Of a DNA stretch of 32,000 bases, positions 11,137-28,906 are shown in pieces. The number at the start of each line of letters is the position of its first letter. Position 1 is the first letter of the stretch. The position numbers and the translations under genes are program-made. The DNA comes from Burkholderiaceae bacterium (lineage in GTDB: Bacteria; Pseudomonadota; Gammaproteobacteria; Burkholderiales; Burkholderiaceae_C), in the NCBI GenBank assembly GCA_965234775.1, contig OZ248566.1; one strand, given 5' to 3'. The notes beneath the pieces were generated by a model. The model did not search any database and was not told the DNA's origin. It worked only from the letters and a program-made list of their open reading frames with translations.

Positions 11137-11253
11137 AAAATTTCCCTTTATCTTCAACAACTTAAGCACTTTTATTGGCGCTTTACTTTAAGAAATTTGT
11201 AGTATACCGGTCCCATACTACATTTCATAGATTTTTCAATGTGTTTTCATAGA

Positions 11254-11671: not shown

Positions 11672-13018
11672 TCATTCCCAAGGCCTGGGTCTGCGCTTGC
11701 TCTGCAGTTCACCCACGTTCATCTCACCCTGCAAGGGAGCAGCGTAAAAGCGGTCAATCATCTCAGGACTGGTGCGAGCATTTCGTGCCAGGGTCAAGGT
11801 GTCCACCGTTCTGCCAAACATCAGCCGGAACATGATGCTGCTGTGGCGCAGACTGTAAAGACTGCGTGGCTCACCCACATTGCCAATCTTCAGTTGTGTG
11901 ATGTCAAGTATTGAGTCAAATTGTTTGGCCAGCAACTTCATGGCATGGTCTCTGGTGGATGCCAGGGGCATGAACACAAAGTCATCTGGCTGAACGGCTC
12001 TGCCAAATTCAAGCTCTTGGCGACGGCAAATGCGCTCATACACCTTCACAGCCCAGGGCATGGTGGTAATTGGATAGCTGTGGCCCTTGCTGGGGGGTAG
12101 GGTCAGCCGCAAATAGGTCCATTCGCGTCTGACAATCTCCACATGCTTGTGCTGCATGTTGCGAACATCAGTGGGGCGGATGTAGCTGTTGACCATGAAC
12201 ACAATGAGATCGGCCAAGTCTCGCGTGATGTCATAGCTTTTGATCAAACGGTCACCTGGGCTGTGCTTTTCCCCTGAGAGGCAGAAGTAATTGCCCTCAC
12301 CATCACTTTTCACACGCCACTCAATGCGCTTGCCAGCAAACTTTTTGGCGGCTCTGAACAGCTGCTTGTACTCGCCCACATTGAACCAGCCCCGAGGCTT
12401 GTCTTCCACGCCCACCTTGGGAAACTCCGGCAGGTGCTGCAAAAAGCTGTGCCTGGCACCATGTTGAAGCACCTTGCGCACCAGCCCCATGTAGGCGCTC
12501 AGAGTTGAAATGCTCAACTTGGGTTCAAGACTGGACATTTTCTGCAGGTACTCATCCAACAGCTTGTAGTTGATGCTCAACACATCCGTCTGACCAAAGA
12601 ACGGCAGGATGTGCTTGTCCATCCTCAGCTGCAGGTTCATGTAACTGGTCTTGGACAGCTGCATGCGATTGAGCTTGGCCAGTTCAGTGTCCATCAGCAT
12701 CTTGGCCACCTTGGCAAAAGACACCACCTCTGCTGCGTTCACATCAATGGGCAAGCCCTCAAACGTTCCGCCATGCATGCGCAGGTTGATGTCATCGTAA
12801 AAGCGCTTGGCAGCTTCCAGTGCATCACGCTTGTTTTCTGTCTTGGTGGTGCGCTTGAAGATGTGCTTTTCAGCGTAGTAGCGTACCCACCAGTAGCTTG
12901 AGGCTGGGATTTTGAAGATCACCAACTTTCTGGGGTAGCCAGGAATCCGTGTGATGGTGTCCTGTAGCGGGACAGATCTGTGGCGCTGATGGGAGTCGGG
13001 TTCTAGTGCTCGGGCCAT
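11672..13018 (-). CDS. tyrosine-type site-specific integrase
   Basis: 448 aa from the ATG at 13018. The C-terminal catalytic region has SLYSLRHSSIMFRL (HxxR-type box) and IDRFYAAP (candidate catalytic Tyr). The gene sits next to the tRNA gene, in the orientation typical of island integrases. Confidence 0.88.
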   Translation of the reverse strand: MARALEPDSHQRHRSVPLQDTITRIPGYPRKLVIFKIPASSYWWVRYYAEKHIFKRTTKTENKRDALEAAKRFYDDINLRMHGGTFEGLPIDVNAAEVVSFAKVAKMLMDTELAKLNRMQLSKTSYMNLQLRMDKHILPFFGQTDVLSINYKLLDEYLQKMSSLEPKLSISTLSAYMGLVRKVLQHGARHSFLQHLPEFPKVGVEDKPRGWFNVGEYKQLFRAAKKFAGKRIEWRVKSDGEGNYFCLSGEKHSPGDRLIKSYDITRDLADLIVFMVNSYIRPTDVRNMQHKHVEIVRREWTYLRLTLPPSKGHSYPITTMPWAVKVYERICRRQELEFGRAVQPDDFVFMPLASTRDHAMKLLAKQFDSILDITQLKIGNVGEPRSLYSLRHSSIMFRLMFGRTVDTLTLARNARTSPEMIDRFYAAPLQGEMNVGELQSKRRPRPWE

Positions 13019-13127
13019 GGCTTTCACTCGCAATGTTCTACATAGTGTGTTTTCTGAGAAGCAGGGCAGTCAACCGAAAGCTGGCTGGACTGTGGCTTTT
13101 AGACGATCTGCACAATCGATCGAATGG

Positions 13128-13784
13128 TCAGGCAGTTGCTGTTTGCTCTGCAGGTTCATCTGCACTGCTCTGGGAGGTTTGACCTGTCCAATAGTGCTTG
13201 TCATGCCAATCACGGAGATCTGATAAGGTTTTATCGATCGCTTGTGTGCCATATCTTTCTGTCATTGCTTTTAAACAGTCAACATCAAAGTTTTCGATCA
13301 CAGTGTCTTGAATGCCACTTTCCAGGAGTTCTTCTTTGTGTTTTTCAACTTTTTCGGGCCATCTTTTGACTTCATCAAACAAGTGCCTGGCATGGTGATA
13401 GTTGTGCAATCGCTTGCTTAATTTTGTAAAGTCGTTGTTCTCTACGTAGAAAGATCCACTGCATATTTTTGAGTACTTCAAAATAAAAAAACTGTTGGGT
13501 TGAATTCTTTCTGCAGTGAAGTAAAAGTGTGAAATCGGAATCGTTGCCCAATAGCCAGGACCTTCCTCGCCAGTGTCTGGACTTAAACAATATTTCAATC
13601 TACCAAGAGAACGGATGTAATTTCTGTGATGACCGTGTGCTTTGTAGCAACTGAAATCCTCAGTACCCAGCAGACGAACGATCTCTTTGCGCTTGGGCAG
13701 CTCGCCTTCGTCCTTCACATGCCAAAGCAAGATTGAGCCTTTGGTAATTTTTTCGAAAAGATTTGACATGACATTCGCTTCCAT
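13128..13784 (-). CDS. hypothetical protein (AT-rich orphan)
   Basis: 218-aa ORF, or 213 aa if it starts at MSNLFEK (13769). It is markedly more AT-rich by eye than its neighbours. No motif was recognised. Confidence 0.55.
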   Translation of the reverse strand: MEANVMSNLFEKITKGSILLWHVKDEGELPKRKEIVRLLGTEDFSCYKAHGHHRNYIRSLGRLKYCLSPDTGEEGPGYWATIPISHFYFTAERIQPNSFFILKYSKICSGSFYVENNDFTKLSKRLHNYHHARHLFDEVKRWPEKVEKHKEELLESGIQDTVIENFDVDCLKAMTERYGTQAIDKTLSDLRDWHDKHYWTGQTSQSSADEPAEQTATA

Positions 13785-13789
13785 AAATT

Positions 13790-13811
13790 CCCTAAACCCG
13801 AAGGTTTAGGG
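13790..13811 (-). promoter_or_regulatory. intercistronic stem-loop (9-bp stem, UUCG loop on the mRNA strand) overlapping the RBS of ORF 13784
   Basis: The minus-strand RNA reads CCCUAAACC-UUCG-GGUUUAGGG, then AAUUU, then AUG (13784). It is preceded by a C5UC6 tract. Confidence 0.5.
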
Positions 13812-13830
13812 GGGAGGGGGATTGCTTGGT

Positions 13831-14865
13831 TTAAGCGGGTTGATTAATCGTCACGCCGCCAATGGTTTGGGTCTGGGGCGCATTGAGCATGGCCTCAGGT
13901 TGCACTGCACCGTTCACTGCAGGCATGCCACTGGGTTGATAGCCCTTGTCGCCAGGCTTCATGCCCCAGCCAGAGGTGATGCCCAGTTTTTCGCGCAAGA
14001 CGTCAAGCTTTTGTTGCATGGCTTCCAGGTCATCTGGCATGCTGGCCTCGGCCACCAGGTTCAAGATCTGCGACTCCATGGATTCGTTCAGCTTGAAGAA
14101 CCTGACCACGCGGCGCTCTTGGCCAATGGGGTTCACGCAAACCGCAAACTCAAAGCTGCCTTGCTTTTTGCCCTCAACCACGGTGTTGAGCACAAACTGG
14201 TCATCCACATGCACCACGGTTTGGCTTGACTTGGCATTGGCCAAAAGAATTTTGCGCAGCATCTGCGTCTTGGCTTCCTTGTGATCCTTGACGTTTTTGG
14301 CTGCTTCGGCCTCGTCCCTGGTGGCTGTGATCTTGCCAATGCCGCCACGGTCTTTGATGTAGTTGGGCAGCTCTTGGGCCGTGAGGTTTTCATCATGCGC
14401 CACCTGTAGTACTTTGGAGTACGAGTAGGCGGTCTGACGATCCGTTGGCAGGATGAAGCGCAGCACCGTGGTGATCCAAGGCGTGTTGGCCTGGGTCTTG
14501 ATCTCATGCTCTTCCTCCAAGCGCTCACGCATGCGCTGAAGGATGTGATCCCGCAGGGGTGACTCGTTGATCTGCAGGGCATAACTGTAGATGGCACCCA
14601 AGAGGGCATAAAGCTCCTTGGTACCCCTCACAACGTATGTTTCCACATACTGGTCGTTCATCTTGGACAGGTTCTGGGCCTGCCCCAAAACCATGTCCAC
14701 CTGAGCGTCGTTGGCGCTCTTGTCACTGGGTCGGCGGCTATCGGAACCGCCAAGGGCGCGGTTCATAAGTAGGCCAAAAGCAAACTCATCCACAGCTGGA
14801 ACCGCTGGGGCAGGGCTGGGTGGAACCCCATGAAAGGCAATGGTTTGGACGGACTCTTGATTCAT
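13831..14865 (-). CDS. hypothetical protein
   Basis: 344 aa from the ATG at 14865 (MNQESVQT), which has a strong AGGAG 6 nt upstream. The N-terminus is Pro/Ala-rich, followed by a helical-looking core. No family was recognised. Confidence 0.65.
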   Translation of the reverse strand: MNQESVQTIAFHGVPPSPAPAVPAVDEFAFGLLMNRALGGSDSRRPSDKSANDAQVDMVLGQAQNLSKMNDQYVETYVVRGTKELYALLGAIYSYALQINESPLRDHILQRMRERLEEEHEIKTQANTPWITTVLRFILPTDRQTAYSYSKVLQVAHDENLTAQELPNYIKDRGGIGKITATRDEAEAAKNVKDHKEAKTQMLRKILLANAKSSQTVVHVDDQFVLNTVVEGKKQGSFEFAVCVNPIGQERRVVRFFKLNESMESQILNLVAEASMPDDLEAMQQKLDVLREKLGITSGWGMKPGDKGYQPSGMPAVNGAVQPEAMLNAPQTQTIGGVTINQPA

Positions 14866-14979
14866 AAAAACTCCTGTTGAAAAATAACTTTCGGGACCGT
14901 CGGCCAGGATGGACACGACAAGCACAGGTTAGTTTTCTGGCGTCGGAGGTTTTTCACTTTTTCGAGGGGGTACGAAAAA

Positions 14980-15720
14980 ATGAAAGTTCAAAGGCTGGAA
15001 TGGTGTAGGCAAGAAAAGCTGGTTTCCTTGATCGCTGGTGGGCTACTGAGGTCTGAGGTGACCGCGCCCTTTATCCACGGCACCTACCTGGAGCTTTGGT
15101 GGCGATGCCTTAAGTGTTCTAAAGAATTCACCCAAAGCGGCCGTACCGGCATATTCACCTCTGCCGGCGCATACAAGACCTTCTGCATGTTTGGCTCAAT
15201 AGAAGACATGACGTTTCATGACTGGTGGCTGAGCAAGGGCCATGAGTTTTTTAGTCAAAGCATTACGACCTTGCAAGTCACGCTGTATGTGAAACGCAAG
15301 AACATCAATGCATTTGCAATTACCGTAGATGCATTTCAAGATGTATCAAGCCAGTTGGCCGGAAAAGAGTTTGGCTTTTGGCACGACCAGATCTGCCTGC
15401 TGAATGCAAAACAGGGGCTGCTGTCTGAGGCACCATTGTCCTGGCCAATTTTTCGCAGTCGAATTGGCTTGGAAGCGATCTCTCAGCTGTTGAGCATCAT
15501 GGAAACTCATGACCAAATCGTTCGCAATGCGCCAAAAACATGTCTATGGCAGATAGGCGAACAGCTAAAACTCAACCCTAAGGCCATGCCTAAACATGAT
15601 GACTTCCCTGCTGATGCGGCAGACAAGCACAAGGCCATGGGTCAGACTGTGAGCAACTACCTGAGAAAAGGGAATCGCCTTGTCAAAAATGCATGCAATG
15701 GCATATTCCCTAAATGCTGA
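14980..15720 (+). CDS. hypothetical protein
   Basis: 246-aa ORF with GAGGGGG 9 nt upstream of the ATG. It is divergent from 13831-14865 across a 114-bp intergenic region. No family was recognised. Confidence 0.55.
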   Translation: MKVQRLEWCRQEKLVSLIAGGLLRSEVTAPFIHGTYLELWWRCLKCSKEFTQSGRTGIFTSAGAYKTFCMFGSIEDMTFHDWWLSKGHEFFSQSITTLQVTLYVKRKNINAFAITVDAFQDVSSQLAGKEFGFWHDQICLLNAKQGLLSEAPLSWPIFRSRIGLEAISQLLSIMETHDQIVRNAPKTCLWQIGEQLKLNPKAMPKHDDFPADAADKHKAMGQTVSNYLRKGNRLVKNACNGIFPKC

Positions 15721-15851: not shown

Positions 15852-18800
15852 TTAATCTGCTCTTTCTGAGATCACCACCAACGTGCGTTGTCCGCCAAAG
15901 GTCAATGCCACTTGCAGTGGAAAAGCGCCATCCGGCACGGCGCTGGCATCAAACCGCAAGGTTTTGACATCAAATTTCAGCCATTCAGGAAGTGCAGAAC
16001 CACTCGGTAAGTTTGCGCGAATATCGGAACTTTCTGCGGCTGCGGTACGAACCGATTCAGGCAGATCAAAGCTAAATCCTGCGCCCACGGTAGACGTTCC
16101 CTTTGGCAAAGAAACCGCAAACATCATCGACAAACCGGTTGAACTGGGTGCATTGCGTTGCTCAACGCTGATGCCTGATGCCTGCGAGCTTGCAGCTGAG
16201 CTGTTGGCAGAACTGCCTGAGTCATTCGTCACCAAAGTTTGGGTTGTGGCACTCACCATCAACGGTTGAGGTATGTTGGCATTGGACAGACTTGTGCCCA
16301 TCACAGGCGGTGTTGGGTTATTGGCCAATAATTTAGAGGCGACAACTTGCGCCGCGGTGACATTGGGTGAGACAGAGACATCGCGTGTGATGTTGGTGCC
16401 CGTTTTGTTGACAACCCCAGTGAAGTTGTTGGTGCCGTCTAGGGTGATGCTGCCGCCAGCGGTGAGGTTGGTGGGGCCGGTGGCGACAGTGAGTGTGCTG
16501 CTGGTGCCCTGGGTGACGTTGCCGGTGGTGGCAGTCAGGTCCAAGGTGCTGGCGTTGACCACACCGTTCACAGCGAGGTTGGTGGCAGCAGTTGCGTTGA
16601 GGTTGCCAGCCGTGGTCACGGTGCCCAGTGTGAGCGCATTCGCATCGACGATGGTCACGTTGCTGCCATTCAGGCTAACGGCACCCACAAAGTCATTGCC
16701 CGCATTGCCCAAGTTGATTGCGGCGGGTTGTCCGCCCTGCGTGGCTGTGAAACTGCTGGTCGATTGCGCTGTGATCACGCTGCCGCTGGATTGGCTGATG
16801 GCGCCATCGGTGCTGGTCACGCTCAATGTGCCTGTGCTGGTCAGGTTGCCCAATTGCACGCCAGCCGTGGTGTCTGTGATGCTGGTGTTTCCACCCACAG
16901 AAACACTGCCCGAAGCGCCTTGGCTGAAGTTTTGGGTGACTGATAGGTCACCTCCAAGGGTCATGGCACCGCCAGTTTGCACCAACGAGGCTGCCGTCAT
17001 GGCGCCTGTGCCCGAAAAGCTGCCACCGCTTTGGTTGAAGCTGTCCGAGGTGGTTGAGCCTGTATTGGTCAGAGTGCCGCCACTTTGCGTGAGGCCGCTC
17101 AAAACCATGCCGCCCGTGCCCACATTCAAGGTGCCCGCGCTTTGCGACAAATTGCTGCCCGTGCCCGTCAACCCGTCAATGTTGACCGCACCGCTTTGCG
17201 CAGGAGCAACCACTGTGCTGCCAAAGCTGGCCGTCACGCCAGAGGGAATGACCACGTTGGCCACGTTGGACAAATCAGGCACCGCACCGCCCGCCCAGTT
17301 GGCGGGATCAAACCAATTGCCCGTTGTGCCGCCCACCCAAGTGACAGAGTTCAGGCGTGTGATGCTGCTTTGCGTGTTGCTGGCGTAAGTGATGGCGTAA
17401 TTGCCGCCGCTGTTGCCGTCAGCCACCACCGCTGCGCTTGGCGTCAGCGTTTTGCCGGTGCCCACATTCTTATTGTCAAAGTTAAGGCTGACGCCACTCA
17501 CCGTATCGCCTGCAACACCCAGTGCTGTGCTCAGTGCCGTCAAGTCTGCTGCGGTCACTGAGGAGGTGGTTTGCCCGTCGTAGACCTTGGTGCCCGTCGG
17601 TGCAGTCAGTGTCACGGCTTTGGGCGTGATGGTGCCTGAGCCACTGATGGACGCATTGGTGATGGTGTAGTTGCCAGCATCGTTGCCCGTCAATGCCAAA
17701 TTGCTGAGGGTGTAGGTGGTCGAACCTGCATTGCGCGAGGCAAATTGCCCATTTCCGCCAGCGCTGACTGCGTCGGTCAGGGCACCCGACGTCACCACGC
17801 CGGTCATGCCAATCGAGACCCCAGTCGCTGCGGTGGTGCCGTCATAAGGTTTGGTGGCGTTATTGACATTGGGGGTCAATGCTTTTGGTGTGACAGACAA
17901 GTCACCCACGACGGTCAAGCGACTGAAGTTGGGGTTGGCGCTGGGCGTGATGGCAAGCCCAGAGCCTTCCAACTGGTAAGCCCCTGCCTTTGTCTGTAAG
18001 GTCGTGCTGAGCGAAGCATTGACAGGGGTGAGATTGAATGTGGCCGATGTGCCTGCGCCGTCGTTCACGGACACGGCATTGCCGTTCACGTTCACAGTGC
18101 CTACGTTGACCGGTGCAGCAGGGTTGCCCCCCGCAGGCATGTACTGAGCGCTGCTCACGGTGTAGGTGGGCGCAGACCCGTAGGTGGCACTGGCGCTTTG
18201 CAAGCGAACCAAGAGTTGCTCAGCCGGCACGATGGTGTAACTGCCCTTTGCGTAACTGATTTGGTAATTTGGCGCAACAGCGCCAGAAGGTACCAGTGCA
18301 TTGGCATAGGTGCCTGCAGACTCGGTGCCACTGCTGGCCAACACACCGGTTGCAGCGCTGCCGTTGGTGATGTTCAAGGTGTTGGTGCGGTCTACGCTCA
18401 CCGTCGGTGTGCTGGTCAGAACGCCAGCGGTCGACGCCGTTTCGCCCACCACAAAGGGTGAATAACTGAATGTGAAGCCAGGGTCTGCGGTGGTCACAAA
18501 CTTGGCATCGTTGTTGGCGTAAACCGTTAAAGAAGCTGGGGTGATTTGTTTTGTAGCCGCTGCAGGCTGCGTGAGCGAGTAATTGCCTGACTGCGCACCC
18601 GACAAGCTCAGACCCGTAAAAGTCACTGTGCTGGCCGTGGCGACGTCTTTGGTGTTGAAGTTGCCAAGGGCTGTGCCAGTCAGAGCAACGGTGTCGCCCA
18701 AGTAGGCCTTGCCGTCACTGCTGGTGCCCGTGCCTGTGGCAATGGCGGTTTGCAAGACCGCCGTGCCGCTCACAACGGCTGTGGTGGTGCCGTCGTAAAC

Positions 18801-21800
18801 CTTGTCAGCGGTGGTCACGCCCGACACCGTCAATGCCTTGGCCGTGATGCGTGGCGTTGTGGCGTTGGCGTGCTGGGTCAGGCTGTAGTTGTCTGCGCCT
18901 GTGCCAGTCAGACCCAGACCTGAGAAAGCCACCGTGTTGGCTGTGATCACGTCTTTGGTGTTGAAGTTGCCAAGGGCTGTGCCAGTCAGGCTCACGGAAT
19001 CAACCGCATAAGCCTTGCCGTCGCTGCTGGTGCCCGCGCCTGCCGCAATGGCAGTTTGCAGCACAGCGGTGCCGTTGACGGCGGCTGTGGTGGTGGCGTC
19101 GTACACCTTGTTGGCCGATGACAGCCCGCTGACGGTCAGCGCCTTGGCCGTGATGCGCGCCGTGTTATCGGAAGGCTGCGTGAGAGCGTAATTGCCTGAT
19201 TGCGCACCCGTCAAACTCAGGCCTGTGAAAGCCACCGTGTTGGCCGTGAGCACGTCTTTGGTGTTGAAGTTGCCCACAGCTGTGCCCGTCAAGCTCACCG
19301 TGTCACCCGTGAAGGGTTTGCCATCACTGCTGGTGCCTGTTGCCACAGCCGCTTGCAATACTGCGGTGCCGCTCACCACGGCCGTGGTGGTGCCGTTGTA
19401 AACCTTGTTGGCGCTTGAGAGCCCAGAAGCCGTCAGCGCCTTGCGGTTGACCGTCAGCGTATTGGCGGAGACGCTGTAGCCCAATCCAGTCAAGTTGCTG
19501 GTGATGGTGTAAGGCGTGGCATTGGCATTGAGACGGCCCGAGGAATAGGCCGCGCTGGTGATGGTTTGAGAGAACGTATCGCCATTCAACAACCCAGTGG
19601 GCGTGGTGGACAACGCAAAACTGTCGCCATAAGTGATGACTTGGTTGAGGTTGTCCAGGGTGATGGCTGTGGGCTGTTCGCGATAAATGCCATACACACC
19701 CGAGCTAAGGGCGGTCCAGCTGCCAGTGGCAAAGTTGGTCGATTCATCGGCGTTGTACCTAAAGCGCCCAGTGCCTGCCGTCAGGCCGCTCAAGCTGGTC
19801 AAGCCCGTACTGCCTGTCACGCTGCCAGTCATCAGGCTGATCCTTCCTCCAGTACCGACGCTCAGCGTGGGCGTTCCAGAGATCAGCAAGTTGCCCCCGG
19901 AGGCAGTTCCTGGGGCGGTGCTCTTACCCGCGTTGAGCAAGATGGCACTGCTGGTCGTGCTGGTGGTGTTGATGTTGTCAGCCAAGGTGAGGTCGCCCGT
20001 CAAGGTAGAGACACTGACGGCGCCGGTGGCTCCAATGCCAGAGGTGGCACCCACTGTGCCGATGGTGAGCGCATTGCTGTCAATGTAGGTTAGGCTGCCC
20101 ACGCCGCTGGCCGCCAAGGTGCCAACGTTGTTGCTGGCGTGGTCAAGCGTGACGTTTCCGCCTAAGAGGAACAGGTCACTGGCGACAACGAAGCCGCTGG
20201 TGCCATCGGTGACAGCCTTGCCGGTGCCGCCTTTGAGGGTGATTTGGCTGTTGGTGGCCGTGATCGGCGCACTGATCGTGATGGCCCCACCGTTAATGGA
20301 GATCGGACCTGTTGCGGTGATGGCTGTGCCCACGGTCACATCGGCGGTGTTGGCGCTCTTGCCCAGGCGCACGCTAGAGGGGGAGCCTGAAATCGATGGA
20401 AATGTCTGCGCCGCTGAGAAGGTGGACCCTGCTGATTCAAAAACGATGTTGCCACCCGTGTTGAGTTTCAGAGCATTGGGGTTGAAAGTTTTGTTGGCCT
20501 GTATCGTGATGTCAGACGTGCTGGTGGTCACAGATGATCCACTCACAGCCCCGATATTCAAAGTTTCACTTCTTAGAGAGGTGATTGAGTTCTGCGTACC
20601 TAACGAGCTTCCATCCGGTGTCAGGTCAACGATACTGATGCGCCCAGACTGCGACAGCAGACTGGCCCCGGCCCAGTTTTGCAGACCATCTGAATTGGCG
20701 GTTGTTCTACGGTACAGGTTCAGGGTGAGTGCACCGGAGTCGGTGACGATGGTGTTACCGCCACTGAAATAAATACCCATTGCGTTACCGGTGGTGGTCA
20801 GATTGGATGCATTTCCTGTCACGGTGATGTTGCCGCTGCCACTGGTCCGGACAATGGAGTTGTCGCCAAAAAGAACGGCGACGTCATCTTGAGTTCCGCT
20901 AGCCCCCCCAGCTGCAAAAGAAGAACTTAGATTTATGTTGCCGCCAGAGGCATTGAAGCTGGCGTTGTTGCCAATTAGCAGAGCATAGTCTGTGCTGCTC
21001 GTTTGGGGTGAATTTGTGACGCTGTAAGTGATCGGTGACCCTTGGGTGGTCACGCTGAAAGACCCCTGTACGATGGCTGTGCCGGAAAGGCTGATACCCG
21101 TGCTGTTGGTCGCGGTGCTGGATAAGTTGTTGTTCACCGAAATGATGCGGCCAGCGTTCAGAGTAATCCCACCACCAATGCTCAAGGCATAGTAAACATT
21201 GATGTCTCTGTGCGCGGTCAGCGTCAGAGAATTAGCGGCCGCTTGGGTGACTGCGGCATTCACTCTGATGTCGCCATTGCCTCCCGGTGACGCATCCGTG
21301 GCAATGGCAACGCTGGTGGTGAGTAAGTTGCCGGCCAGGGTTGTCGCGCCAATGCCACTCGTGGTTTGCCCGCCTGAACCGGCGCTGATGGTGAAGTCAA
21401 TCGGGTCCAGCAGCCATTGGCCAGCGTTGCCTTTTGGCGCCAACGTGTTCACCCCGGCTGTTTCAGCCACGCGCAGTGTGTGCCCTGAGGTTTCGACACG
21501 CCCACCTTGGCCGCTGTTGGGGCCGCCTTGTGCATGAATTTGCCCTGCAAAATCGGTTTCACTGCCTTCTGCTTTGACATCACTCCACAGCACCACCATG
21601 CCGCCATCGCCATTGTGCGTGGCGCTGGCATCGATGGTGGCACCGCTGGCCATGTTCACTGTGGTGGCCTGTTGGTTAGGCTGCTCTGTGACTTGCAGCA
21701 GCGGGTCAGCGCTGCCTTGCCAGTTGCCCCCCACCAGCACCGTGCCGCCGCCGGCAGGCCCCGTGGCGCTGATGCGGCTGCTGCTTTGCAGCTCAATGCT

Positions 21801-22799
21801 GTCGCCTTGCAGGCTGATGTTGCCGCCTTTGCCAAAGGCCTCAGTGCTGCTGGCATCCAAGGTGCCCGCATTTTGCACACGCGCGCTGCCCGACAACACA
21901 ATGCGCCCGCCTTGTTGTTGAAGGCCAGTGGCTTCCACCGTGCCACTGTTTTTCACCACGCCGCCGACCAGGCGGTCCATCGATTGCGCGCTGATGATGA
22001 CCAAGCCGCCAGGGGCTTGTACGGCCAAGCGGTTGTCCACCAGGGCTTGAATTTGGCTGGGCGTGACGCGCAGGCTCGTCAGGCGGTTGTTGCTGTCGAA
22101 CTTCAAGTCAAAGGCTTCGCCAGCGGCCATGGCCACGGTGCCCATGTGCGCGATGACGGCACCTTGGTTGCGCACCTCAGGTGCGAGCAGTGCGATGTAG
22201 CCGCCCAATGTGGCCTTGAGCTCGCCTTCGTTGACCACGCTGGCGGTGCTGTCGTTGCGCTCAAACCTGTTTTTGCCCGCCATGAAGTCGGCATTGCCAA
22301 TGCCATGTGTGGTCGCGATCAAACCGCCCACATCGACGCGCGCATCTTTGCCAAAAAACACACCCGACGGGTTGGTGAGGATGACTTGGCCGTTGGCTGA
22401 AATTTGGCCAAAGATTTGGCTGGGGTCGTTGCCGAGCACACGGTTGAGCGTGACGCTGCTGGCACTGGGCTGTACAAACTGCACCTTGGCGTCTTTGCCC
22501 ACATTGAAGCTTTGCCAATTGATGGCCGCGCGGTCGGTGCTTTGCTGGATGAGCATATTCGCACCCGTTTGCCCAATGCTTGCCTTGCCCGCGCCGACTT
22601 GCCCGCCCGTGGGCAAGGTGCTGGGTGGTGGTGCCGTCTGGGCGTAGGCGCTTTGCGCCAAAAGACCCCCCAGAATTGCAGCAATGGCTGAGACCACCTT
22701 CGCACCCGAGCTGGGCTTGCCTTTGGCGCTGACGGTTTCGGCAGCGGCGACATAGGTTTGCTTACTGGCGTTCCAGATGCTGTGGAATGACTTGTTCAT
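15852..22799 (-). CDS. two-partner-secretion exoprotein TpsA (filamentous hemagglutinin-like adhesin)
   Basis: 2315 aa. It has an extended signal peptide (MNKSFHSIWNASKQTYVAAAE...) and a TPS/hemagglutination-activity domain (AAINWQSFNVGKDAKVQF...LNRV...ILTNPSGVFFG). A long Gly/Thr/Ser/Ala-rich beta-helix-like region follows, then five KVYDGTT-type repeat units. The C-terminus is Ig-like (LPEWLKFDVKTLRFDASAVPDGAFPLQV). Confidence 0.92.
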   Translation of the reverse strand: MNKSFHSIWNASKQTYVAAAETVSAKGKPSSGAKVVSAIAAILGGLLAQSAYAQTAPPPSTLPTGGQVGAGKASIGQTGANMLIQQSTDRAAINWQSFNVGKDAKVQFVQPSASSVTLNRVLGNDPSQIFGQISANGQVILTNPSGVFFGKDARVDVGGLIATTHGIGNADFMAGKNRFERNDSTASVVNEGELKATLGGYIALLAPEVRNQGAVIAHMGTVAMAAGEAFDLKFDSNNRLTSLRVTPSQIQALVDNRLAVQAPGGLVIISAQSMDRLVGGVVKNSGTVEATGLQQQGGRIVLSGSARVQNAGTLDASSTEAFGKGGNISLQGDSIELQSSSRISATGPAGGGTVLVGGNWQGSADPLLQVTEQPNQQATTVNMASGATIDASATHNGDGGMVVLWSDVKAEGSETDFAGQIHAQGGPNSGQGGRVETSGHTLRVAETAGVNTLAPKGNAGQWLLDPIDFTISAGSGGQTTSGIGATTLAGNLLTTSVAIATDASPGGNGDIRVNAAVTQAAANSLTLTAHRDINVYYALSIGGGITLNAGRIISVNNNLSSTATNSTGISLSGTAIVQGSFSVTTQGSPITYSVTNSPQTSSTDYALLIGNNASFNASGGNINLSSSFAAGGASGTQDDVAVLFGDNSIVRTSGSGNITVTGNASNLTTTGNAMGIYFSGGNTIVTDSGALTLNLYRRTTANSDGLQNWAGASLLSQSGRISIVDLTPDGSSLGTQNSITSLRSETLNIGAVSGSSVTTSTSDITIQANKTFNPNALKLNTGGNIVFESAGSTFSAAQTFPSISGSPSSVRLGKSANTADVTVGTAITATGPISINGGAITISAPITATNSQITLKGGTGKAVTDGTSGFVVASDLFLLGGNVTLDHASNNVGTLAASGVGSLTYIDSNALTIGTVGATSGIGATGAVSVSTLTGDLTLADNINTTSTTSSAILLNAGKSTAPGTASGGNLLISGTPTLSVGTGGRISLMTGSVTGSTGLTSLSGLTAGTGRFRYNADESTNFATGSWTALSSGVYGIYREQPTAITLDNLNQVITYGDSFALSTTPTGLLNGDTFSQTITSAAYSSGRLNANATPYTITSNLTGLGYSVSANTLTVNRKALTASGLSSANKVYNGTTTAVVSGTAVLQAAVATGTSSDGKPFTGDTVSLTGTAVGNFNTKDVLTANTVAFTGLSLTGAQSGNYALTQPSDNTARITAKALTVSGLSSANKVYDATTTAAVNGTAVLQTAIAAGAGTSSDGKAYAVDSVSLTGTALGNFNTKDVITANTVAFSGLGLTGTGADNYSLTQHANATTPRITAKALTVSGVTTADKVYDGTTTAVVSGTAVLQTAIATGTGTSSDGKAYLGDTVALTGTALGNFNTKDVATASTVTFTGLSLSGAQSGNYSLTQPAAATKQITPASLTVYANNDAKFVTTADPGFTFSYSPFVVGETASTAGVLTSTPTVSVDRTNTLNITNGSAATGVLASSGTESAGTYANALVPSGAVAPNYQISYAKGSYTIVPAEQLLVRLQSASATYGSAPTYTVSSAQYMPAGGNPAAPVNVGTVNVNGNAVSVNDGAGTSATFNLTPVNASLSTTLQTKAGAYQLEGSGLAITPSANPNFSRLTVVGDLSVTPKALTPNVNNATKPYDGTTAATGVSIGMTGVVTSGALTDAVSAGGNGQFASRNAGSTTYTLSNLALTGNDAGNYTITNASISGSGTITPKAVTLTAPTGTKVYDGQTTSSVTAADLTALSTALGVAGDTVSGVSLNFDNKNVGTGKTLTPSAAVVADGNSGGNYAITYASNTQSSITRLNSVTWVGGTTGNWFDPANWAGGAVPDLSNVANVVIPSGVTASFGSTVVAPAQSGAVNIDGLTGTGSNLSQSAGTLNVGTGGMVLSGLTQSGGTLTNTGSTTSDSFNQSGGSFSGTGAMTAASLVQTGGAMTLGGDLSVTQNFSQGASGSVSVGGNTSITDTTAGVQLGNLTSTGTLSVTSTDGAISQSSGSVITAQSTSSFTATQGGQPAAINLGNAGNDFVGAVSLNGSNVTIVDANALTLGTVTTAGNLNATAATNLAVNGVVNASTLDLTATTGNVTQGTSSTLTVATGPTNLTAGGSITLDGTNNFTGVVNKTGTNITRDVSVSPNVTAAQVVASKLLANNPTPPVMGTSLSNANIPQPLMVSATTQTLVTNDSGSSANSSAASSQASGISVEQRNAPSSTGLSMMFAVSLPKGTSTVGAGFSFDLPESVRTAAAESSDIRANLPSGSALPEWLKFDVKTLRFDASAVPDGAFPLQVALTFGGQRTLVVISERAD
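18545..19445 (-). repeat. three tandem 303-306-bp (101-102 codon) in-frame repeats inside tpsA
   Basis: GTCTTTGGTGTTGAAGTTGCC recurs at 18645, 18951 and 19254. The first two copies share a ~39-nt perfect stretch. The protein units run KALT(V/A)SG...KVY(D/N)(G/A)TTTA.V.GTAVLQ...GNFNTKDV...F(T/S)GL.L(T/S)G...NY(S/A)LTQ. Confidence 0.9.
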
Positions 22800-22862: not shown

Positions 22863-24554
22863 TCAAAAAGACAAGCCTGCGGTGAACCAGATGCGGTTGA
22901 TCAGAAGCGTGCCGTCGCCATCGGTACCGGTGGCTGTGGGCTTGGGGTTGCTGCCTTCGCGCTGAGACCACGTGAGCTTGGCGTTGAGACCCAGGGGGCC
23001 TTGCCAAGCCGCGCTCAGGCCATACCCGCGCAAACTCGATGGCGTGGATGCGTCAGCGGCTGTGGTTGGCAGCGCGGTCACCCAAGCTTGGTCTATAAAA
23101 CCGCTCAGCAACCACGCAGCATGCAAGCGCCAGCGCCATTCGCCCGTCAGCAGTTGGCCGCGCTCACCACCCAACTCGCTGCTGGGGTAGGCGCGCACGA
23201 TGGTGGCACCGCCGATGTAAAACTTCTCAGACGAGTCCAGCAACTGCGTGGCGTATTGGCCTTGGAGGTTGAGGAGCAGAGAGTGGTCCTTGGTCAATGA
23301 CTGTTGTCGGCTCAGGGCGTAGTTGAATTTGATGTAGTCGCGGCCCAGGGTGTCGATCTGGGTGTGGGCCTTGACACGGGCGAGTTGACCTTGCACCACT
23401 TGCAATGAGGCACTGTTGGCACCGCCGCCACCCAGGTCGTCAAAAACGTTGCCAGAAAAACCCAACTTCAGGCTGTTGGTCTCGTAATCGGCGTAGCTGT
23501 TGGTGGCGCTGGTTTTGTTGATGCTGTCGTTGTAGAAACGTTTGTTATCCAGACCCCCAGAAAAATACAAATTGCGCATGCGCTGCCGAACGACTGGAAA
23601 GCTCCAGTCCAAGCCTATGCTGTCGGAGCTGCCTTGGACGTTCAAGCTCACCAAGCTGCTGGGGCCGTCGATGACTTTGTAGTTCATCGTGCTGCCGTTG
23701 AACCCAAAGCGCAAGCCGTTGTAGCCCACAGGGACGGTCAGACCCAATCGGACGTAGGCACTGCCTTGGGTGCGCAATGCGGTCAAGTTGATCAATTCGC
23801 CGTGGTCGCCAGGGCTGTTGATGTTCAGGTTGAGCATGACGCGGTTGCTGCCGGTTGAGCGCGCACCGGTGTTGTCCAGGGTCACTTCGCCGTAGACAAA
23901 AGCCTCGTCGCTGTTTTGAATCGCCAAGCCCGTTTCGCCTTCGGCCTGGCCTGGAACCAAGGTGCCTGCGACGCTGATGCCGGGCAGGTCGTCGGCCAAC
24001 AGCAGGGCACGGTCGAGGGCCAGTGTGTTCAAAGGCTCGCCCGTTTTTTGTTGCTCCTCGAAAAAGGCCTCAATGTCCGAGGAAAGAACGCGCTTGGAAG
24101 GTTCGCCTTCCAGGCGCAGGCCAGCAAACCGTGCTTCCACCACTTGCAGGGTGATGGTGCCTTCGCTGATGTCTTGCTCTGGCAAATAAACCCGCGCCAA
24201 CCATCCGGACTCACGGTAGGCAGCGGCGACCGCATCGGCGGCGCGCTGTATCCCGGCAAAGTCGAGTTGCAGGCCCACAAACGCCTGCAGGACGGTTGCC
24301 AGTTGTTCGCTGCTGAGCAAGTTGTTGCTTGCAAAGCGGAAGGATTTGACCATGACGGTCATGCCCGATGTGGGCTGGATTTGGGGGGGCAGCGGTGCGC
24401 TTTGGGGGCGCGCTGCGGGCAATGGCTGTGGGCGTTGTTGCTCGATTTGCTGACGCAAGCTACCGGCGTCTGGGGGCGTTTGGGCCCATCCCGAAAAGCT
24501 CAGCCCCAATGCGACAGGCAAAGACCAATAAGTGGGAAGAGGTCTATTGGGCAT
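22863..24554 (-). CDS. TpsB outer-membrane transporter (ShlB/FhaC/HecB family, POTRA plus beta-barrel)
   Basis: 563 aa from the ATG at 24554, with a signal peptide ending SGWAQ. A POTRA-like region (VKSFRF.SN.LLS.EQL) is followed by a C-terminal barrel ending in an aromatic residue (AGLSF). It lies immediately upstream of tpsA (63-bp gap). Confidence 0.9.
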   Translation of the reverse strand: MPNRPLPTYWSLPVALGLSFSGWAQTPPDAGSLRQQIEQQRPQPLPAARPQSAPLPPQIQPTSGMTVMVKSFRFASNNLLSSEQLATVLQAFVGLQLDFAGIQRAADAVAAAYRESGWLARVYLPEQDISEGTITLQVVEARFAGLRLEGEPSKRVLSSDIEAFFEEQQKTGEPLNTLALDRALLLADDLPGISVAGTLVPGQAEGETGLAIQNSDEAFVYGEVTLDNTGARSTGSNRVMLNLNINSPGDHGELINLTALRTQGSAYVRLGLTVPVGYNGLRFGFNGSTMNYKVIDGPSSLVSLNVQGSSDSIGLDWSFPVVRQRMRNLYFSGGLDNKRFYNDSINKTSATNSYADYETNSLKLGFSGNVFDDLGGGGANSASLQVVQGQLARVKAHTQIDTLGRDYIKFNYALSRQQSLTKDHSLLLNLQGQYATQLLDSSEKFYIGGATIVRAYPSSELGGERGQLLTGEWRWRLHAAWLLSGFIDQAWVTALPTTAADASTPSSLRGYGLSAAWQGPLGLNAKLTWSQREGSNPKPTATGTDGDGTLLINRIWFTAGLSF

Positions 24555-24608
24555 TTTGTGGGTCAAGAAAAAACATCGCGCGAGGTTAAAACGCGAAAAT
24601 CTTTCTTT

Positions 24609-24625
24609 GCCTACAAAAACCTACA
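24609..24625 (-). promoter_or_regulatory. tandem 10-bp-phased direct repeat GCCTACA-AAAA-CCTACA upstream of tpsB (candidate response-regulator box)
   Basis: On the gene strand it reads TGTAGG-TTTT-TGTAGGC, 55 nt upstream of the tpsB ATG. The same bipartite pattern occurs at 27355-27371. An AT-rich hexamer (TTTAAC) lies 18 nt downstream. Confidence 0.55.
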
Positions 24626-24664
24626 AAATTGACATGTCTTAATGGGTGAGGTCAGCAGGTACTG

Positions 24665-25381
24665 CTAAACCACTTGCACTGAGATGCACAGCTGGTAGCC
24701 GTGCCCCCGGATGGCTTCGATGCAGTTGCTGCCCGCTCCGGCGTCTACCAGTTTCTTGCGCAGGCGCACCATGCGCACTTCCAGGCTGGCTTTGGGGTAA
24801 GTTTCCAGGTTCAGGCCGAGGGTTTCGGCGATTTGCCAGTAGGCGATGCGCTGTCCTGGGGCACGTGAAAAGGCGGTCAAGATGGAAGTTTCAGAAGCGC
24901 TCAGGACAATTTCAGACTGACCAGGCTTGGCAATACGCATGTGCTGCTGATGCAGGGTAAAGCTTTGCTGGTTCTGGTTTTGCAGCAGGGTGTCAACCCT
25001 TTGTCGACGCCGACCAAGGGCGCCAACCGCGGCACAGAGTTCGGGCACTTCGATGGGTTTGCTGAGGTACATGTCGGCACCTCGCGCGTAGCTTTCGAGC
25101 TTGTCGCTCAGGCCCGAGCGGGCTGTTACCACGATCAAACCCGCGAGCGGGTAGGCGGTGCGTACGCGCTCAGTTAGGCTCAGGCCATCTTCGCCGGGCA
25201 GGTTCAGGTCGATCAAAAAAATGTCAACGTGTTGGCCTTGGGCCACGTCTTCGAGCTCTTCGGCACAAGACAGTGCAACGACTTGATGGCCTGATTCCTC
25301 CAGCGCTTGCTGGAGCATGTCGCGCAAAATGTCGTGATCTTCAACAATCACCAGGTTCAGGCGTGGTGCAGGGGTATCCAC
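24665..25381 (-). CDS. OmpR/PhoB-family response regulator (receiver plus winged-helix)
   Basis: 238 aa. The receiver has LVIVEDHD and DIFLIDLNLPGEDG. The C-terminal winged helix has MVRLRKKL...IEAIRGHGYQL. The start is GTG at 25381, overlapping the kinase 3' end by 25 nt. Confidence 0.9.
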   Translation of the reverse strand: MDTPAPRLNLVIVEDHDILRDMLQQALEESGHQVVALSCAEELEDVAQGQHVDIFLIDLNLPGEDGLSLTERVRTAYPLAGLIVVTARSGLSDKLESYARGADMYLSKPIEVPELCAAVGALGRRRQRVDTLLQNQNQQSFTLHQQHMRIAKPGQSEIVLSASETSILTAFSRAPGQRIAYWQIAETLGLNLETYPKASLEVRMVRLRKKLVDAGAGSNCIEAIRGHGYQLCISVQVV

Positions 25382-27282
25382 AGAACAAACTCCACATGTT
25401 GATAGCTGGGCGCGTAAACCAAAGTGCCCCCCAGGCTTTGCGCCAGCTCTCGCGATAGGAAAAGCCCGAGGCCTGTGCCCGATTCGCGTTGTGCGGCATT
25501 GGCGCGGTAATACTTGTTGAACAGTTGCTCAGTGTCAGGCCAGCCAGCCAGCCCCGGTGTGTTGCTCATGCGCAGTTCCAAGCCCGGCAGATCATCCTGG
25601 GTTTTGGGCTTCAAGGTGACGGTAACGGGGGTGAGGGGGTCGCTGTAATGGGCCGCATTGATAAGCAAATTGGTCAGAACGATTTGCAGCAGTTGTGGGT
25701 CTGTGTGTGGCCGAGGCAAGTTTAGGTCTGCGGCGAGATCGAAACGCCCCTTAAGCTTTGAGATGGCCTTTGCTTGTTGACGTAAGAGCCCCACCACATT
25801 GACTGGTTGGCGGTGTTGCTTCAGTCGAAGTTCTCCGATTTGGTCAGACTGCACGCAGCGCTCGATGATGGCTTTCATGTCTTGCACAGCATGGCTGGCA
25901 TGTGCCAGGTTTTCTTCCCGGTTTGTCTTGTTACCCAGCGCTAACGACACGATAGACAGCGGTGTCTTGAGCTCGTGCATCAGCATGTGTAAAAACTGAG
26001 ATTGCTCTTGACGCTGTCGCTGCTCAAGGGCCAGGACTTGCTTGGTCCTGTCTAGGTTCATGGCCATCATGGTTTTCTCGTTTTGTAGCTCATGCGATTT
26101 TTGGGCCATGTTGTATACACGCAATTGCATCAGCAAGAACATCACCAGTCCATCGAGCAAGACATGCATCAGGTTACCGGCCAGCAAGAAGCGGTTGATT
26201 GGCAGCCACCCCTGCCGGATGGCGGCGGGGATGATGTTGATGGTCGCGAAAATGGAAAAATAAGCCAACAATAACAAGTAGGACAAGCTTTGTTTTTGCC
26301 GGGAGGGTTGAGCGAACAACAAGGTAAACCACATCAAGCCCAAGCAAACAATCACCATGACATTGGTGCTTAACAACATGAATCGGGTCATGTCAAAGAA
26401 CTGGAGAAAGGGCAGTACGCAGACCAGCGCCACAGCGGCAAGTGTTGCGCGCAGAAAGCCGCGCTGCAGGCCATAGTCTTCAAACAAGACGGTATAGAAC
26501 CATACGCCGCTAGCAAGAGTCCAAATCCGGATAAAGTATCCTAGGCAGAGGCGGAAGTTCAGGGGAATGAGATCGCTCAGCAAAAGCCCACTGAAACCCA
26601 CCATACTGAAAGCCCACAGCGTGGCCATCCATTGTTTAAAGGCGTATACCCCCATCACTCGCTCTCGACTCATCCACCATTGCATCGTCGACCACAGGGC
26701 AAAGACGATGGACACAGACTGCAGAAAGACCACGAGTCTTTCCATGTTGTAATTTTTGACTTGTGCTTTGCGCAAAGGCCAGACATCGGTCATGACCAGC
26801 CGGGCACTTGGGGTGTCGATGCGCAAGTACAGGTTGCGCTCTTCGGGTAAGGGTGGAATCTGAAATGAAAAATTGATCGAATCCAAGGCATCCTCACTGC
26901 GCGGTCTAGCATAACCACCGTGCTGGACCCGGGTTGAGGCTGAGTCATACAAAGTCAGTTGATCGAGGAAAAACGGTTCAACACCGACGATCCATGCCTC
27001 TTTTTCTTCGGGTAAGGCTGCACGCAAGGTGTAGCGGATCCAGATGGGTTCTTCCCCAAATCCCCAATTCATCTTGCCATCAAAAGATGTCCAGCTTTCG
27101 ACGGCTTGGACCTCTTGAAGCGTGGCACGACCGCTGGAGTCCATGTGCCAGGCCATGGATTGGACGAGCGGAGGTGCTTTGCTTCCGTCTGGGGATGGTT
27201 GGCAAGCTGCCAGCCCGAATGTGAGCAGGAGCGTCAGGAACAATCCAGACCAACGGAACCAGCGGGGAGCATTGACGAGCAT
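25357..27282 (-). CDS. sensor histidine kinase with 7TMR-DISM-type N-terminal sensor and seven-TM region
   Basis: 641 aa from the ATG at 27282 (TTG at 27288 is possible). It has a lipobox-like signal (LTFGLAAC) and a periplasmic domain, followed by about 7 hydrophobic helices. The H-box is MHELKTPLS and the ATPase N/G boxes are LLINAAHYS and GTGLGL. Confidence 0.85.
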   Translation of the reverse strand: MLVNAPRWFRWSGLFLTLLLTFGLAACQPSPDGSKAPPLVQSMAWHMDSSGRATLQEVQAVESWTSFDGKMNWGFGEEPIWIRYTLRAALPEEKEAWIVGVEPFFLDQLTLYDSASTRVQHGGYARPRSEDALDSINFSFQIPPLPEERNLYLRIDTPSARLVMTDVWPLRKAQVKNYNMERLVVFLQSVSIVFALWSTMQWWMSRERVMGVYAFKQWMATLWAFSMVGFSGLLLSDLIPLNFRLCLGYFIRIWTLASGVWFYTVLFEDYGLQRGFLRATLAAVALVCVLPFLQFFDMTRFMLLSTNVMVIVCLGLMWFTLLFAQPSRQKQSLSYLLLLAYFSIFATINIIPAAIRQGWLPINRFLLAGNLMHVLLDGLVMFLLMQLRVYNMAQKSHELQNEKTMMAMNLDRTKQVLALEQRQRQEQSQFLHMLMHELKTPLSIVSLALGNKTNREENLAHASHAVQDMKAIIERCVQSDQIGELRLKQHRQPVNVVGLLRQQAKAISKLKGRFDLAADLNLPRPHTDPQLLQIVLTNLLINAAHYSDPLTPVTVTLKPKTQDDLPGLELRMSNTPGLAGWPDTEQLFNKYYRANAAQRESGTGLGLFLSRELAQSLGGTLVYAPSYQHVEFVLWIPLHHA

Positions 27283-27354
27283 GGTCAAGGAACAGGTGGG
27301 TATGACAATGAAAGGCTTGAAAGCTGGTAGTTTTTAACAGAAAAGCAAGTTGAA

Positions 27355-27371
27355 GCCTACATTTCCCTACA
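27355..27371 (-). promoter_or_regulatory. tandem 10-bp-phased direct repeat GCCTACA-TTTC-CCTACA upstream of the kinase gene (candidate autoregulatory box)
   Basis: On the gene strand it reads TGTAGG-GAAA-TGTAGGC, 67-73 nt upstream of the kinase start. An AT-rich hexamer (TAAAAA) lies 18 nt downstream. Confidence 0.55.
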
Positions 27372-27500
27372 TCGCTGAAGCCATCACTTGTTCCAAGCTA
27401 CTGGGTTGATCGAAACCCGTCCTTATCTGTCACACCCGGCTAGACCGGGTAACCATCCCCGCCGAAGTCACCCAAGCGTTTAAAGGTTGCGACGACCTTG

Positions 27501-27676
27501 CCAAAAAGCAAAGGGAATGCTTGGATTACATCGTTGTGCATGAACTGGTGCATTTGCTGGAGCCGGCACACAACGAGCATTTCATCAAACTGATGGATCA
27601 ACATATGCCCAAGTGGAAGTCACATAGGCAATTGTTGAACAGCTTGCCGGTCAGGCATGAAAACTGGGAGTACTAA
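27501..27676 (+). pseudogene. 5'-truncated remnant of a DUF45/YgjP-type zinc metallopeptidase (gene class usually found beside type I R-M hsdR)
   Basis: The frame translates to DDLAKKQRECLDYIVVHELVHLLEPAHNEHFIKLMDQHMPKWKSHRQLLNSLPVRHENWEY*. This includes the HExxH motif and the conserved C-terminal part of the family. About 170 N-terminal codons and any start codon are missing, and an in-frame stop lies at 27417. Confidence 0.65.
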
Positions 27677-27961: not shown

Positions 27962-28534
27962 TCAAACCAGCTCGACAGCTGCCTTCAATTGACTGGGGCT
28001 GCTGTAAAGATAGGCAGCGGTGGTGCTGATTGAGCGGTGCCCAGCAAGCGTTTTTAAAATATGTATCGCAGTGCCTTTGTTGGCCAAGTTTGTTAGGAAC
28101 GTTCTGCGCCCACTGTGACTGCTGGCACCCTCAACTCCAGCGCCTTCGTACATGAGTGCAAAGGCCTGAGCCAAGCTGTTTGCGCCGAATCCTGACTTGA
28201 TGCTTTTTTGGCTGGCAAAGAATGGGTAGTTGCGATCCACGCACCGAGCCTGTGCTGCATACGCTGCCAATTCCTCGCGCAGTCGGATGTTGACGAAAAC
28301 AGTCCTTGGGTGTCGGCCCTTGGTCATGTCGGGCAGCAAGCGGATTTCTTCCTTGACTGTGCCGTCCTGCTTGATCACATCGCTCCAGCGCAGGCAAGCA
28401 ACTTCACCGATTCTTAAACCTGCCAGGTGAGTGAGCAGCATCATTGCTCTGTTGCGTGGCGCGAAGCGGCGTGTGCGGATGTGGTCCAGTACCCGTGTCA
28501 GTTCTTCTTTGGTGAGTGTTTTTGCCTGTGCCAT
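27962..28534 (-). CDS. short tyrosine recombinase (catalytic domain only, 190 aa)
   Basis: Strong RBS (AAAGGAGAActtgaATG). Catalytic residues can be traced: LAGLRIGEV (Arg I), SSHSGRRT (HxxR), LAGHRSISTT (His II) and AAYLY (Tyr). There is no N-terminal core-binding or arm-binding domain. Confidence 0.85.
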   Translation of the reverse strand: MAQAKTLTKEELTRVLDHIRTRRFAPRNRAMMLLTHLAGLRIGEVACLRWSDVIKQDGTVKEEIRLLPDMTKGRHPRTVFVNIRLREELAAYAAQARCVDRNYPFFASQKSIKSGFGANSLAQAFALMYEGAGVEGASSHSGRRTFLTNLANKGTAIHILKTLAGHRSISTTAAYLYSSPSQLKAAVELV

Positions 28535-28732
28535 TCAAGTTCTCCTTTAATCATGTGTTTGCGTTAATTGCATTGTGTTTTCACATATTTATCTGGGCAA
28601 CCTGAGTCCTGCCAGAGTGGCGGGTTACCGAGCTAGAGAGAGGGCGAAATGAACTGGTTGTGGATAACTTTTTCATTGAAAAAATCCTCAACAATTTCAA
28701 AGCTCAAGAGGCGAAATCATTAGAAAGCTGAA

Positions 28733-28906
28733 TTTTCATAGATTTCCGCATCGCTTTCGCACTCTTTTGGTGCCCAAATCACCACTGCATCAAATCAGCC
28801 CTACAAGCGCTGATCGGCGCTGCCAGCATCCCAAGTATTCGGTCAGGTAGATCGATGCGCTGTAGGGCGTTTTAGCGCTGGGGTTTTGTGACTAGACAGT
28901 TGTTGA
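28733..28906 (+). repeat. copy B of the ~175-bp imperfect direct repeat (partner at 11254-11428)
   Basis: See copy A. The internal IR is GCCCTACA (28798-28805) / TGTAGGGC (28861-28868), and the spacer is again exactly 55 nt. It is flanked by the 10-mer AGATTTCCGC at 28740-28749 and 28931-28940. Confidence 0.8.

Follow-up and report, generated by a model that had tools for sequence, protein, structure and literature searches.

Tandem TGTAGG boxes at two promoters as predicted operators of an OmpR/PhoB-family regulator beside two-partner secretion genes in Burkholderiaceae

The 32,000-nucleotide (nt) stretch of contig OZ248566.1 (GenBank assembly GCA_965234775.1) from a Burkholderiaceae bacterium, referred to here as the window, carries a sensor kinase gene and a response regulator gene followed by the two-partner secretion genes tpsB and tpsA. 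The same bipartite box, a direct repeat of TGTAGG, occurs ahead of the kinase gene and again ahead of tpsB. Judged from comparison of homologous loci, the adjacent regulator very probably binds both boxes, which are therefore described as predicted operators, and it probably also activates tpsBA.

Both boxes had been reported in an earlier note made from the letters of the window, and both are confirmed, as GCCTACAAAAACCTACA at 24609-24625 and as GCCTACATTTCCCTACA at 27355-27371. The minus strand is the coding strand for all four genes, and the order along it is kinase-upstream (U) box, kinase, regulator, target (D) box, tpsB and tpsA; on this strand the U box reads TGTAGG-GAAA-TGTAGG-C and the D box TGTAGG-TTTT-TGTAGG-C. 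The D box lies between the regulator and tpsB, beginning 39 nt past the stop codon of the former and ending 55 nt short of the ATG (24554) of the latter, while the U box ends 67 nt before the TTG of the kinase open reading frame (ORF) and 73 nt before the kinase ATG (27282), all three box-to-gene distances agreeing with those noted earlier. Exact matches to GCCTACA-N4-CCTACA in the window are limited to these two positions, and the sequences around the two boxes are unrelated. With up to two mismatches allowed the sole further match is at 24273-24289; it was rejected as a third site, being part of the tpsB coding sequence, with protein-level conservation in homologs and mismatches at invariant core positions.

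Homologous loci were gathered in three ways: kinase homologs were combined into a profile that was run on a single genome from each species, homologous kinases were looked up exactly on metagenome contigs, and the regulator was used in a metagenome scan. In 21 non-redundant loci, amounting to 243 kb and scanned on both strands, the relaxed pattern nGTAGG-N4-nGTAGG gave 30 matches, all on the coding strand. Of these, 17 precede the kinase gene by 64-265 nt and 13 follow the regulator stop codon at a distance of 34-816 nt; the pattern occurs nowhere else in the 243 kb. Block shuffles returned a mean of 0.59 matches with a maximum of 4, and 23 unrelated loci from the same genome scan hold no exact copy of the box. 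The possibility raised in the earlier note, that the pattern is common at random positions, is thus not what is seen in these loci, and neither is its other concern, that homologous kinase-regulator-tpsBA loci might lack the box, as such loci carry it in both positions even where kinase identity has fallen to 34%. Represented among the loci are Comamonadaceae, Aquabacterium, Hylemonella, Polaromonas, Limnohabitans, Burkholderiaceae and Rhodocyclus; Rhodocyclus purpureus DSM 168 and Limnohabitans sp. Hippo3 are examples of complete genomes with the system. The intergenic DNA around the boxes otherwise cannot be aligned between distant loci.

A chance match, or the functionless leftover of a local duplication or mobile-element end, could be invoked as CCTACA also appears in two elements of about 80 nt that flank the region (11319-11395 and 28797-28875). 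These flanking elements, however, have single inverted hexamers 61 nt apart and not a 10-bp tandem, the box is at both positions in Rhodocyclus, Aquabacterium, Hylemonella and Limnohabitans, and 30 matches were observed where 0.6 were expected; this explanation is regarded as refuted and retains next to no probability. The same geometry led to the rejection of the two elements (CCCTACA...TGTAGGG) as extra sites of the regulator.

The architecture of the box is uniform across the 33 sites of the position matrix: each is a direct repeat with an exact 10-bp period, with which 3 hold-out sites agree, the GTAGG core is invariant, and spacer positions 2-3 are always A or T, resulting in an AT-rich spacer. 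Direct repeats of 5-7 nt with a centre-to-centre distance of 10-11 bp are the arrangement of OmpR/PhoB operators. The proximal half of the box had been described earlier as a 7-mer; the trailing C that makes it so is found in both window boxes, but in other loci the same position is merely G or C.

Of the 19 loci with kinase-upstream DNA, 17 have the U box, 64-265 nt before the kinase start as located by tblastn or annotation, and the two exceptions are L038, where the regulator has decayed, and L007, which has a TGTAAG variant. The D box is found wherever the regulator is intact and a co-directional gene is next, and only where such a gene follows the regulator; this holds for 13 loci, for L007 and L054 with variant boxes, and for the hold-out loci L064 and L067. 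The hold-out comprised four loci fetched after the model had been formed, of which these two represent new lineages. Both boxes are present in L064, which fits the model, and the D box of L067 consists of three tandem hexamers, TGTAGG-TATT-TGTAGG-TTTT-TGTAGG (8650-8675), which is counted as a fit. An IS66-family transposase is inserted between the D-box promoter of L067 and its tpsB (8779-10206). In L044 (7877-7892), L037 and L001 the U box runs into or directly adjoins the 3' end of miaA (IPPT), the gene upstream; in these loci the module is chromosomal, beside mutL-miaA, and in the window it is beside an integrase-family ORF.

The regulator of the window (238 amino acids (aa); 24665-25381, minus strand) consists of a Response_reg receiver domain (4.9e-23) and a Trans_reg_C winged helix (3.9e-10), placing it in the OmpR/PhoB family as anticipated for the protein encoded between the sites, and it gives full-length matches to BasR, KdpE and PhoB-family structures. 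It is far under the cut-off of every named NCBIfam equivalog, and is accordingly assigned to no named regulon. Its partner is a sensor histidine kinase of 641 aa from the ATG (25357-27282, minus strand), with the periplasmic domain 7TMR-DISMED2, a seven-transmembrane (7TM) region, HisKA and HATPase_c; the ATG at 27282 is the start used by the 641-aa homologs. The kinase is of the classical type, having neither receiver nor Hpt domains, and since its gene overlaps the regulator gene by 25 nt the two form one operon. Across the loci the regulator is far more conserved than the kinase (67-95% versus 34-90% identity), which is expected if its DNA specificity is fixed and which matches the invariant GTAGG core.

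Across the loci compared, the box co-varies with, or is lost with, the adjacent regulator. In L038 and L039 the regulator is a pseudogene, frameshifted after approximately residue 139 and with its 3' end replaced by an insertion (L038 3396-4240, L039 4753-5597). The D box of both loci is lost, with promoter sequence downstream of its place still alignable, and the U box has decayed to GGCAGAGAAGGATAGAC in place of TGTAGGGAATGGTAGGC, changing four otherwise invariant positions between flanks that can still be aligned. The inserted DNA looks like a piece of an IS transposase gene read from the opposite strand, and the kinase, tpsB and tpsA of these loci are intact. In the Polaromonas locus L007 all four half-sites have A for G at position 5 (U box, TGTAAG-GATT-TGTAAG; D box, TGCAAG-GAAT-TGTAAG), and the predicted recognition helix is KTSLEVRIARLRKKL compared to an otherwise invariant KASLEVRIVRLRKKL. 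A paralogous pair, L055, whose regulator is 43% identical and has the recognition helix KSAIELHIVRLRKKL, has TGAAGG-GTTT-TGAAGG directly before an outer-membrane-factor/ABC type I secretion operon. The changed helix residues presumably occupy base-contacting positions, as judged by alignment to PhoB and the PhoB-DNA structure.

These variants bear on the identity of the protein that recognizes the box. A genuine cis-regulatory site could be bound by another protein, either a global regulator or an OmpR-family paralog; such paralogs are numerous in bacteria, a second kinase-regulator pair being present in L009 and another regulator in L005, and the protein-DNA link drawn here is one of sequence comparison. 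The box, however, is found beside this kinase-regulator pair only, at both of its borders and in every lineage, it decays when this regulator is a pseudogene, and its half-sites change with the recognition helix of this regulator. Binding by a different protein is consequently considered very improbable, and the regulator encoded between the boxes is the favoured candidate.

The mechanism proposed for this regulator would begin with its phosphorylation by the 7TMR-DISMED2 kinase, upon which it would bind as a head-to-tail dimer to two GTAGG half-sites one helical turn apart, the wings contacting the AT-rich spacer. The box ahead of tpsB would stand in for a missing -35 element, and because of this replacement the bound regulator would recruit RNA polymerase and thereby turn on tpsB-tpsA. 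From the kinase promoter it would feed back on its own operon.

An unexpected finding was that the spacer depends on the promoter class. T is at spacer position 2 in 16 of 17 D boxes and in 1 of 19 U boxes (Fisher p = 6e-8), with spacers of the form TTTn in 16 of 17 D boxes and nAAn in 17 of 19 U boxes; the window follows the rule, with TTTT at 24616-24619 (D) and GAAA at 27362-27365 (U) on the minus strand. The exceptions include the D box of L007 (GAAT) and the U box of L049 (GTTG). The flanks are class-specific as well, D boxes having a T-run before and C-AAA after, and U boxes an A before and S-TTT(AAT) after. As the remaining intergenic DNA cannot be aligned between distant loci, the class-specific spacer appears to be selected, and one idea is that it tunes affinity or DNA bending at the two promoters.

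The geometry at the D box is that of an activator-dependent promoter, as far as can be deduced from the sequence. TAnnnT is found at offset 20-21 past the D box in 17 of 17 loci against a base rate of 0.0024 per position, and no -35-like hexamer was found at the proper distance in these promoters. In the window the predicted -10 hexamer of the tpsB promoter is TAACCT (24583-24588, minus strand), 21 nt after the proximal repeat, with the putative transcription start deduced from it. The AT-rich hexamer proposed earlier at +18 of the tpsB box (TTTTAA) overlaps this conserved TAACCT at +21 but is not it. With TAnnnT taken as the -10 and no -35 element, the box would be at about -49 to -34 of the tpsB promoter, so that the suggestion that the boxes overlap the -35 position would hold for the D box; for the U box no consistent placement was obtained.

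In the window the D box is followed by a hairpin (24565-24607, minus strand; dG -14.3 kcal/mol, z = -3.1) that combines an A-run, a GC stem and a T-run and has the predicted -10 of the tpsB promoter in its loop. It is kept in close relatives with one compensatory change, in L001, while in distant loci strong but unrelated hairpins begin at the -10 or shortly past it (L003, L005, L049). The hairpin may be a terminator of the kinase-regulator operon nested in the tpsB promoter, or a leader structure, and those of the distant loci could likewise belong to the 3' end of that transcript or to a leader. The hairpins, the one in the window having a T-run, together with the promoter model implying a short 5' untranslated region (UTR) without a clear Shine-Dalgarno sequence, give some room to an alternative in which transcription starts upstream and the box acts as RNA, where UGUAGG-N4-UGUAGG plus the hairpin would be a leader or attenuator or the site of an RNA-binding protein. 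The fixed distance of 20-21 nt between box and TAnnnT in all 17 loci is instead a DNA-level promoter signature, the hairpins are shared neither in sequence nor in position register and offer only the one compensatory change, and an Rfam search of the window returned tRNA only, with no family at the boxes. This alternative is therefore very improbable; a CsrA/RsmA-type RNA site was rejected because the D-class repeats have no GGA motif.

The kinase promoter is less uniform. A sigma-70 weight-matrix search downstream of the U boxes revealed no geometry common to the loci. The candidate extended -10 of the window, TGtTAAAAA (27331-27339, minus strand), is 19 nt after the U box and is a weak assignment, L033, which is 90% identical, being the one other locus in which it is conserved. 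Some loci have a good TAAGAT or TAGGCT at +17 to +21, and many have gTTTAAT straight after the box. Many also have a block like TTGGACATTTCAGC 18-32 nt downstream of the U box, which could be a -35-like element, the box then being near -62, or a site of another factor; no -10 matching the block as a -35 was found. Such blocks, T(T/G)G(G/A)ACA(T/G)T(T/C)CA(G/A)C, are located at 819-850 in L037, 5933-5964 in L001 and about 1440-1470 in L038, where the block persists even with the box decayed; they are also seen in L049, L005, L008 and L053, and at 27323-27337 in the window. As there is no common U-box promoter geometry, positive autoregulation is one option among activation, repression and a class-I-like position. 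The closed circuit predicted in the earlier note, with the regulator driving both itself and the secretion genes, is consistent with boxes at both promoters and with everything that could be computed, though its autoregulatory arm may be of any of these kinds.

Four points weigh against the proposal that the regulator acts through both boxes. No U box was found in L067, an intact locus. Many of the loci share descent, so the counts given above overstate the number of independent observations. The lack of a common promoter geometry in the weight-matrix search is another such point, and the hairpins that overlap or follow the -10 hint that the picture of the promoter is incomplete.

Beyond the regulator, the domain content of the window agrees with the genes as they had been assigned. 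tpsB (22863-24554, minus strand) encodes the outer-membrane transporter of two-partner secretion, with POTRA_2 and ShlB, and tpsA (15852-22799, minus strand) encodes a 2315-aa secreted protein with an ESPR signal, a TPS domain and YDG, MBG_2 and DUF5649 repeats. The pair is a two-partner secretion (type Vb) system, TpsB having POTRA and the ShlB/Omp85 barrel and TpsA the N-terminal TPS domain. In other loci the gene after the D box may be tpsB as well, often followed by a SapC-family gene and then tpsA. The SapC-family gene is between tpsB and tpsA in most homologous loci (L033 5786-6682, L037 5331-6194, L040 5442-6323), and in the window it is missing, tpsA coming directly after tpsB. Elsewhere the target is an ESPR/PATR autotransporter (L044, L066), a 1005-aa autotransporter (L064) or, in Rhodocyclus L009, small ORFs followed by a YadA-anchor trimeric autotransporter. 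Loci with convergent type I secretion neighbours (L006, L008, L042, L046) have the U box alone, and L053, also with the U box alone, probably has such neighbours. The common theme of these neighbours is large secreted or surface proteins.

A close parallel in regulatory logic is the pho box of the E. coli phosphate regulon, which includes the autoregulated PhoB operon, with tandem repeats of the TGT type, an AT-rich 4-nt spacer and a -10 without a -35. Shared with it are a winged-helix regulator, direct repeats that begin with TGT on the coding strand, the 4-nt AT-rich spacer, a predicted -10 lacking a -35, and a box at the regulator's own operon. The half-site differs, however (TGTAGG here, CTGTCAT there), as do the period (10 bp compared to 11) and the distance from box end to -10 (20-21 nt compared to about 10 nt). 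The regulator, whose PhoB equivalog score of 92 bits is far below the cut-off of 296, is not PhoB, and assignment to the PhoB regulon was rejected on that score and because the site is unlike CTGTCATAWAWCTGTCAY. The sites of OmpR at ompF and ompC, of the type GTTACA-N4-GTTACA, are likewise direct repeats of hexamers with a 4-nt spacer and a 10-bp period, bound by a member of the same family. They differ in the half-site and in forming arrays of three or four sites of graded affinity, where a single pair is found per promoter here (three hexamers in L067), and the regulator scores 100.6 bits against an OmpR cut-off of 331.

The gene arrangement resembles BvgAS with fhaB and fhaC of Bordetella, where a two-component system beside a two-partner secretion adhesin locus controls both the adhesin genes and itself, as is predicted here. 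BvgA is of the NarL/FixJ type, its helix-turn-helix recognizing inverted heptads, and BvgS is a hybrid kinase of the Venus-flytrap/PAS type. Control of the BvgAS type was rejected as a match, the proteins here having a Trans_reg_C output domain and a classical 7TMR-DISMED2 kinase without receiver or Hpt. On the sensor side, the periplasmic domain and 7TM architecture are those of LadS and RetS of Pseudomonas, and several of the kinase homologs are labelled 'LadS' by JGI. LadS and RetS, which control sessile versus adhesive lifestyle, are hybrid kinases that act via GacS and the Rsm small RNAs with no known dedicated DNA-binding partner, whereas the kinase here is classical and is coupled in translation to a DNA-binding regulator for which an operator is predicted.

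The literature searched on the operator motif, on 7TMR-DISMED2 sensors and on OmpR-family control of adhesin secretion gave no description of the system, and TGTAGG was found there mostly as the pKD3/pKD4 primer site. ShkRS of Variovorax was rejected as a counterpart; the two genes point in opposite directions, and nothing was found to connect the pair with this family. The predicted operator is that of a new, conserved OmpR-family regulator, and the logic of the circuit, comprising the regulator's own and a neighbouring operon, is textbook.

To our knowledge, how environmental bacteria time the deployment of adhesins is mostly unknown beyond a few pathogens. The analysis provides (T)GTAGG-N4-nGTAGG as the consensus of the predicted operator of an uncharacterised two-component system, along with a predicted activator-dependent promoter and natural variants of the site. 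The system is kept across freshwater and soil Betaproteobacteria, always beside genes for very large secreted or surface proteins. The operator permits genome scans for the regulon and the design of reporters, which could then be used in screening for the 7TMR-DISMED2 signal. More tentatively, the system may be an unrecognised master switch for large surface adhesins that is widespread in Burkholderiales and Rhodocyclales and has been repeatedly re-wired to the neighbouring secretion locus, with a class-specific spacer code. If this were the case, one switch would have been re-wired onto two-partner secretion, classical and trimeric autotransporters, and type I secretion, and the T-tract of targets and A-tract of autoregulatory boxes would set different affinity or output, for example a feedback threshold below that of the adhesin.

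Several further features of the window may be recorded. In tpsA, three tandem copies of a unit of approximately 306 nt, 73-81% identical, are present at 18551-19443 and are probably repeated domains of the YDG/MBG type, and four ORFs downstream of tpsA (11672-15720; 453, 218, 364 and 246 aa) have no Pfam match. Two partly homologous elements in direct orientation, at 11215-11420 and 28705-28900, have TTTTCATAGATTTC in common; the unit of about 80 nt mentioned above, AGCCCTACAAGCG(T/C)TGATC...GCTGTAGGGC(T/G)TTTTA, is common to both. They bracket a 17.5-kb segment with tpsBA, the two-component system and a 190-aa integrase-family ORF (27962-28534, minus strand), and tRNA-Val(cac) is just outside the left element at 11062-11136. 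These elements may mark the two ends of a genomic island; the plasmid collection contained no match to them. Four copies of the motif TTTCATAGATTT are present in intergenic DNA rich in AT (1349, 11223, 11245 and 28734). Finally, between the U box and the integrase-family ORF, a frame on the plus strand at 27400-27600 contains VHELVHLLEPAHNEHF, by eye an HExxH motif typical of DUF45/YgjP-like metal-dependent hydrolases, and appears to be a gene fragment.

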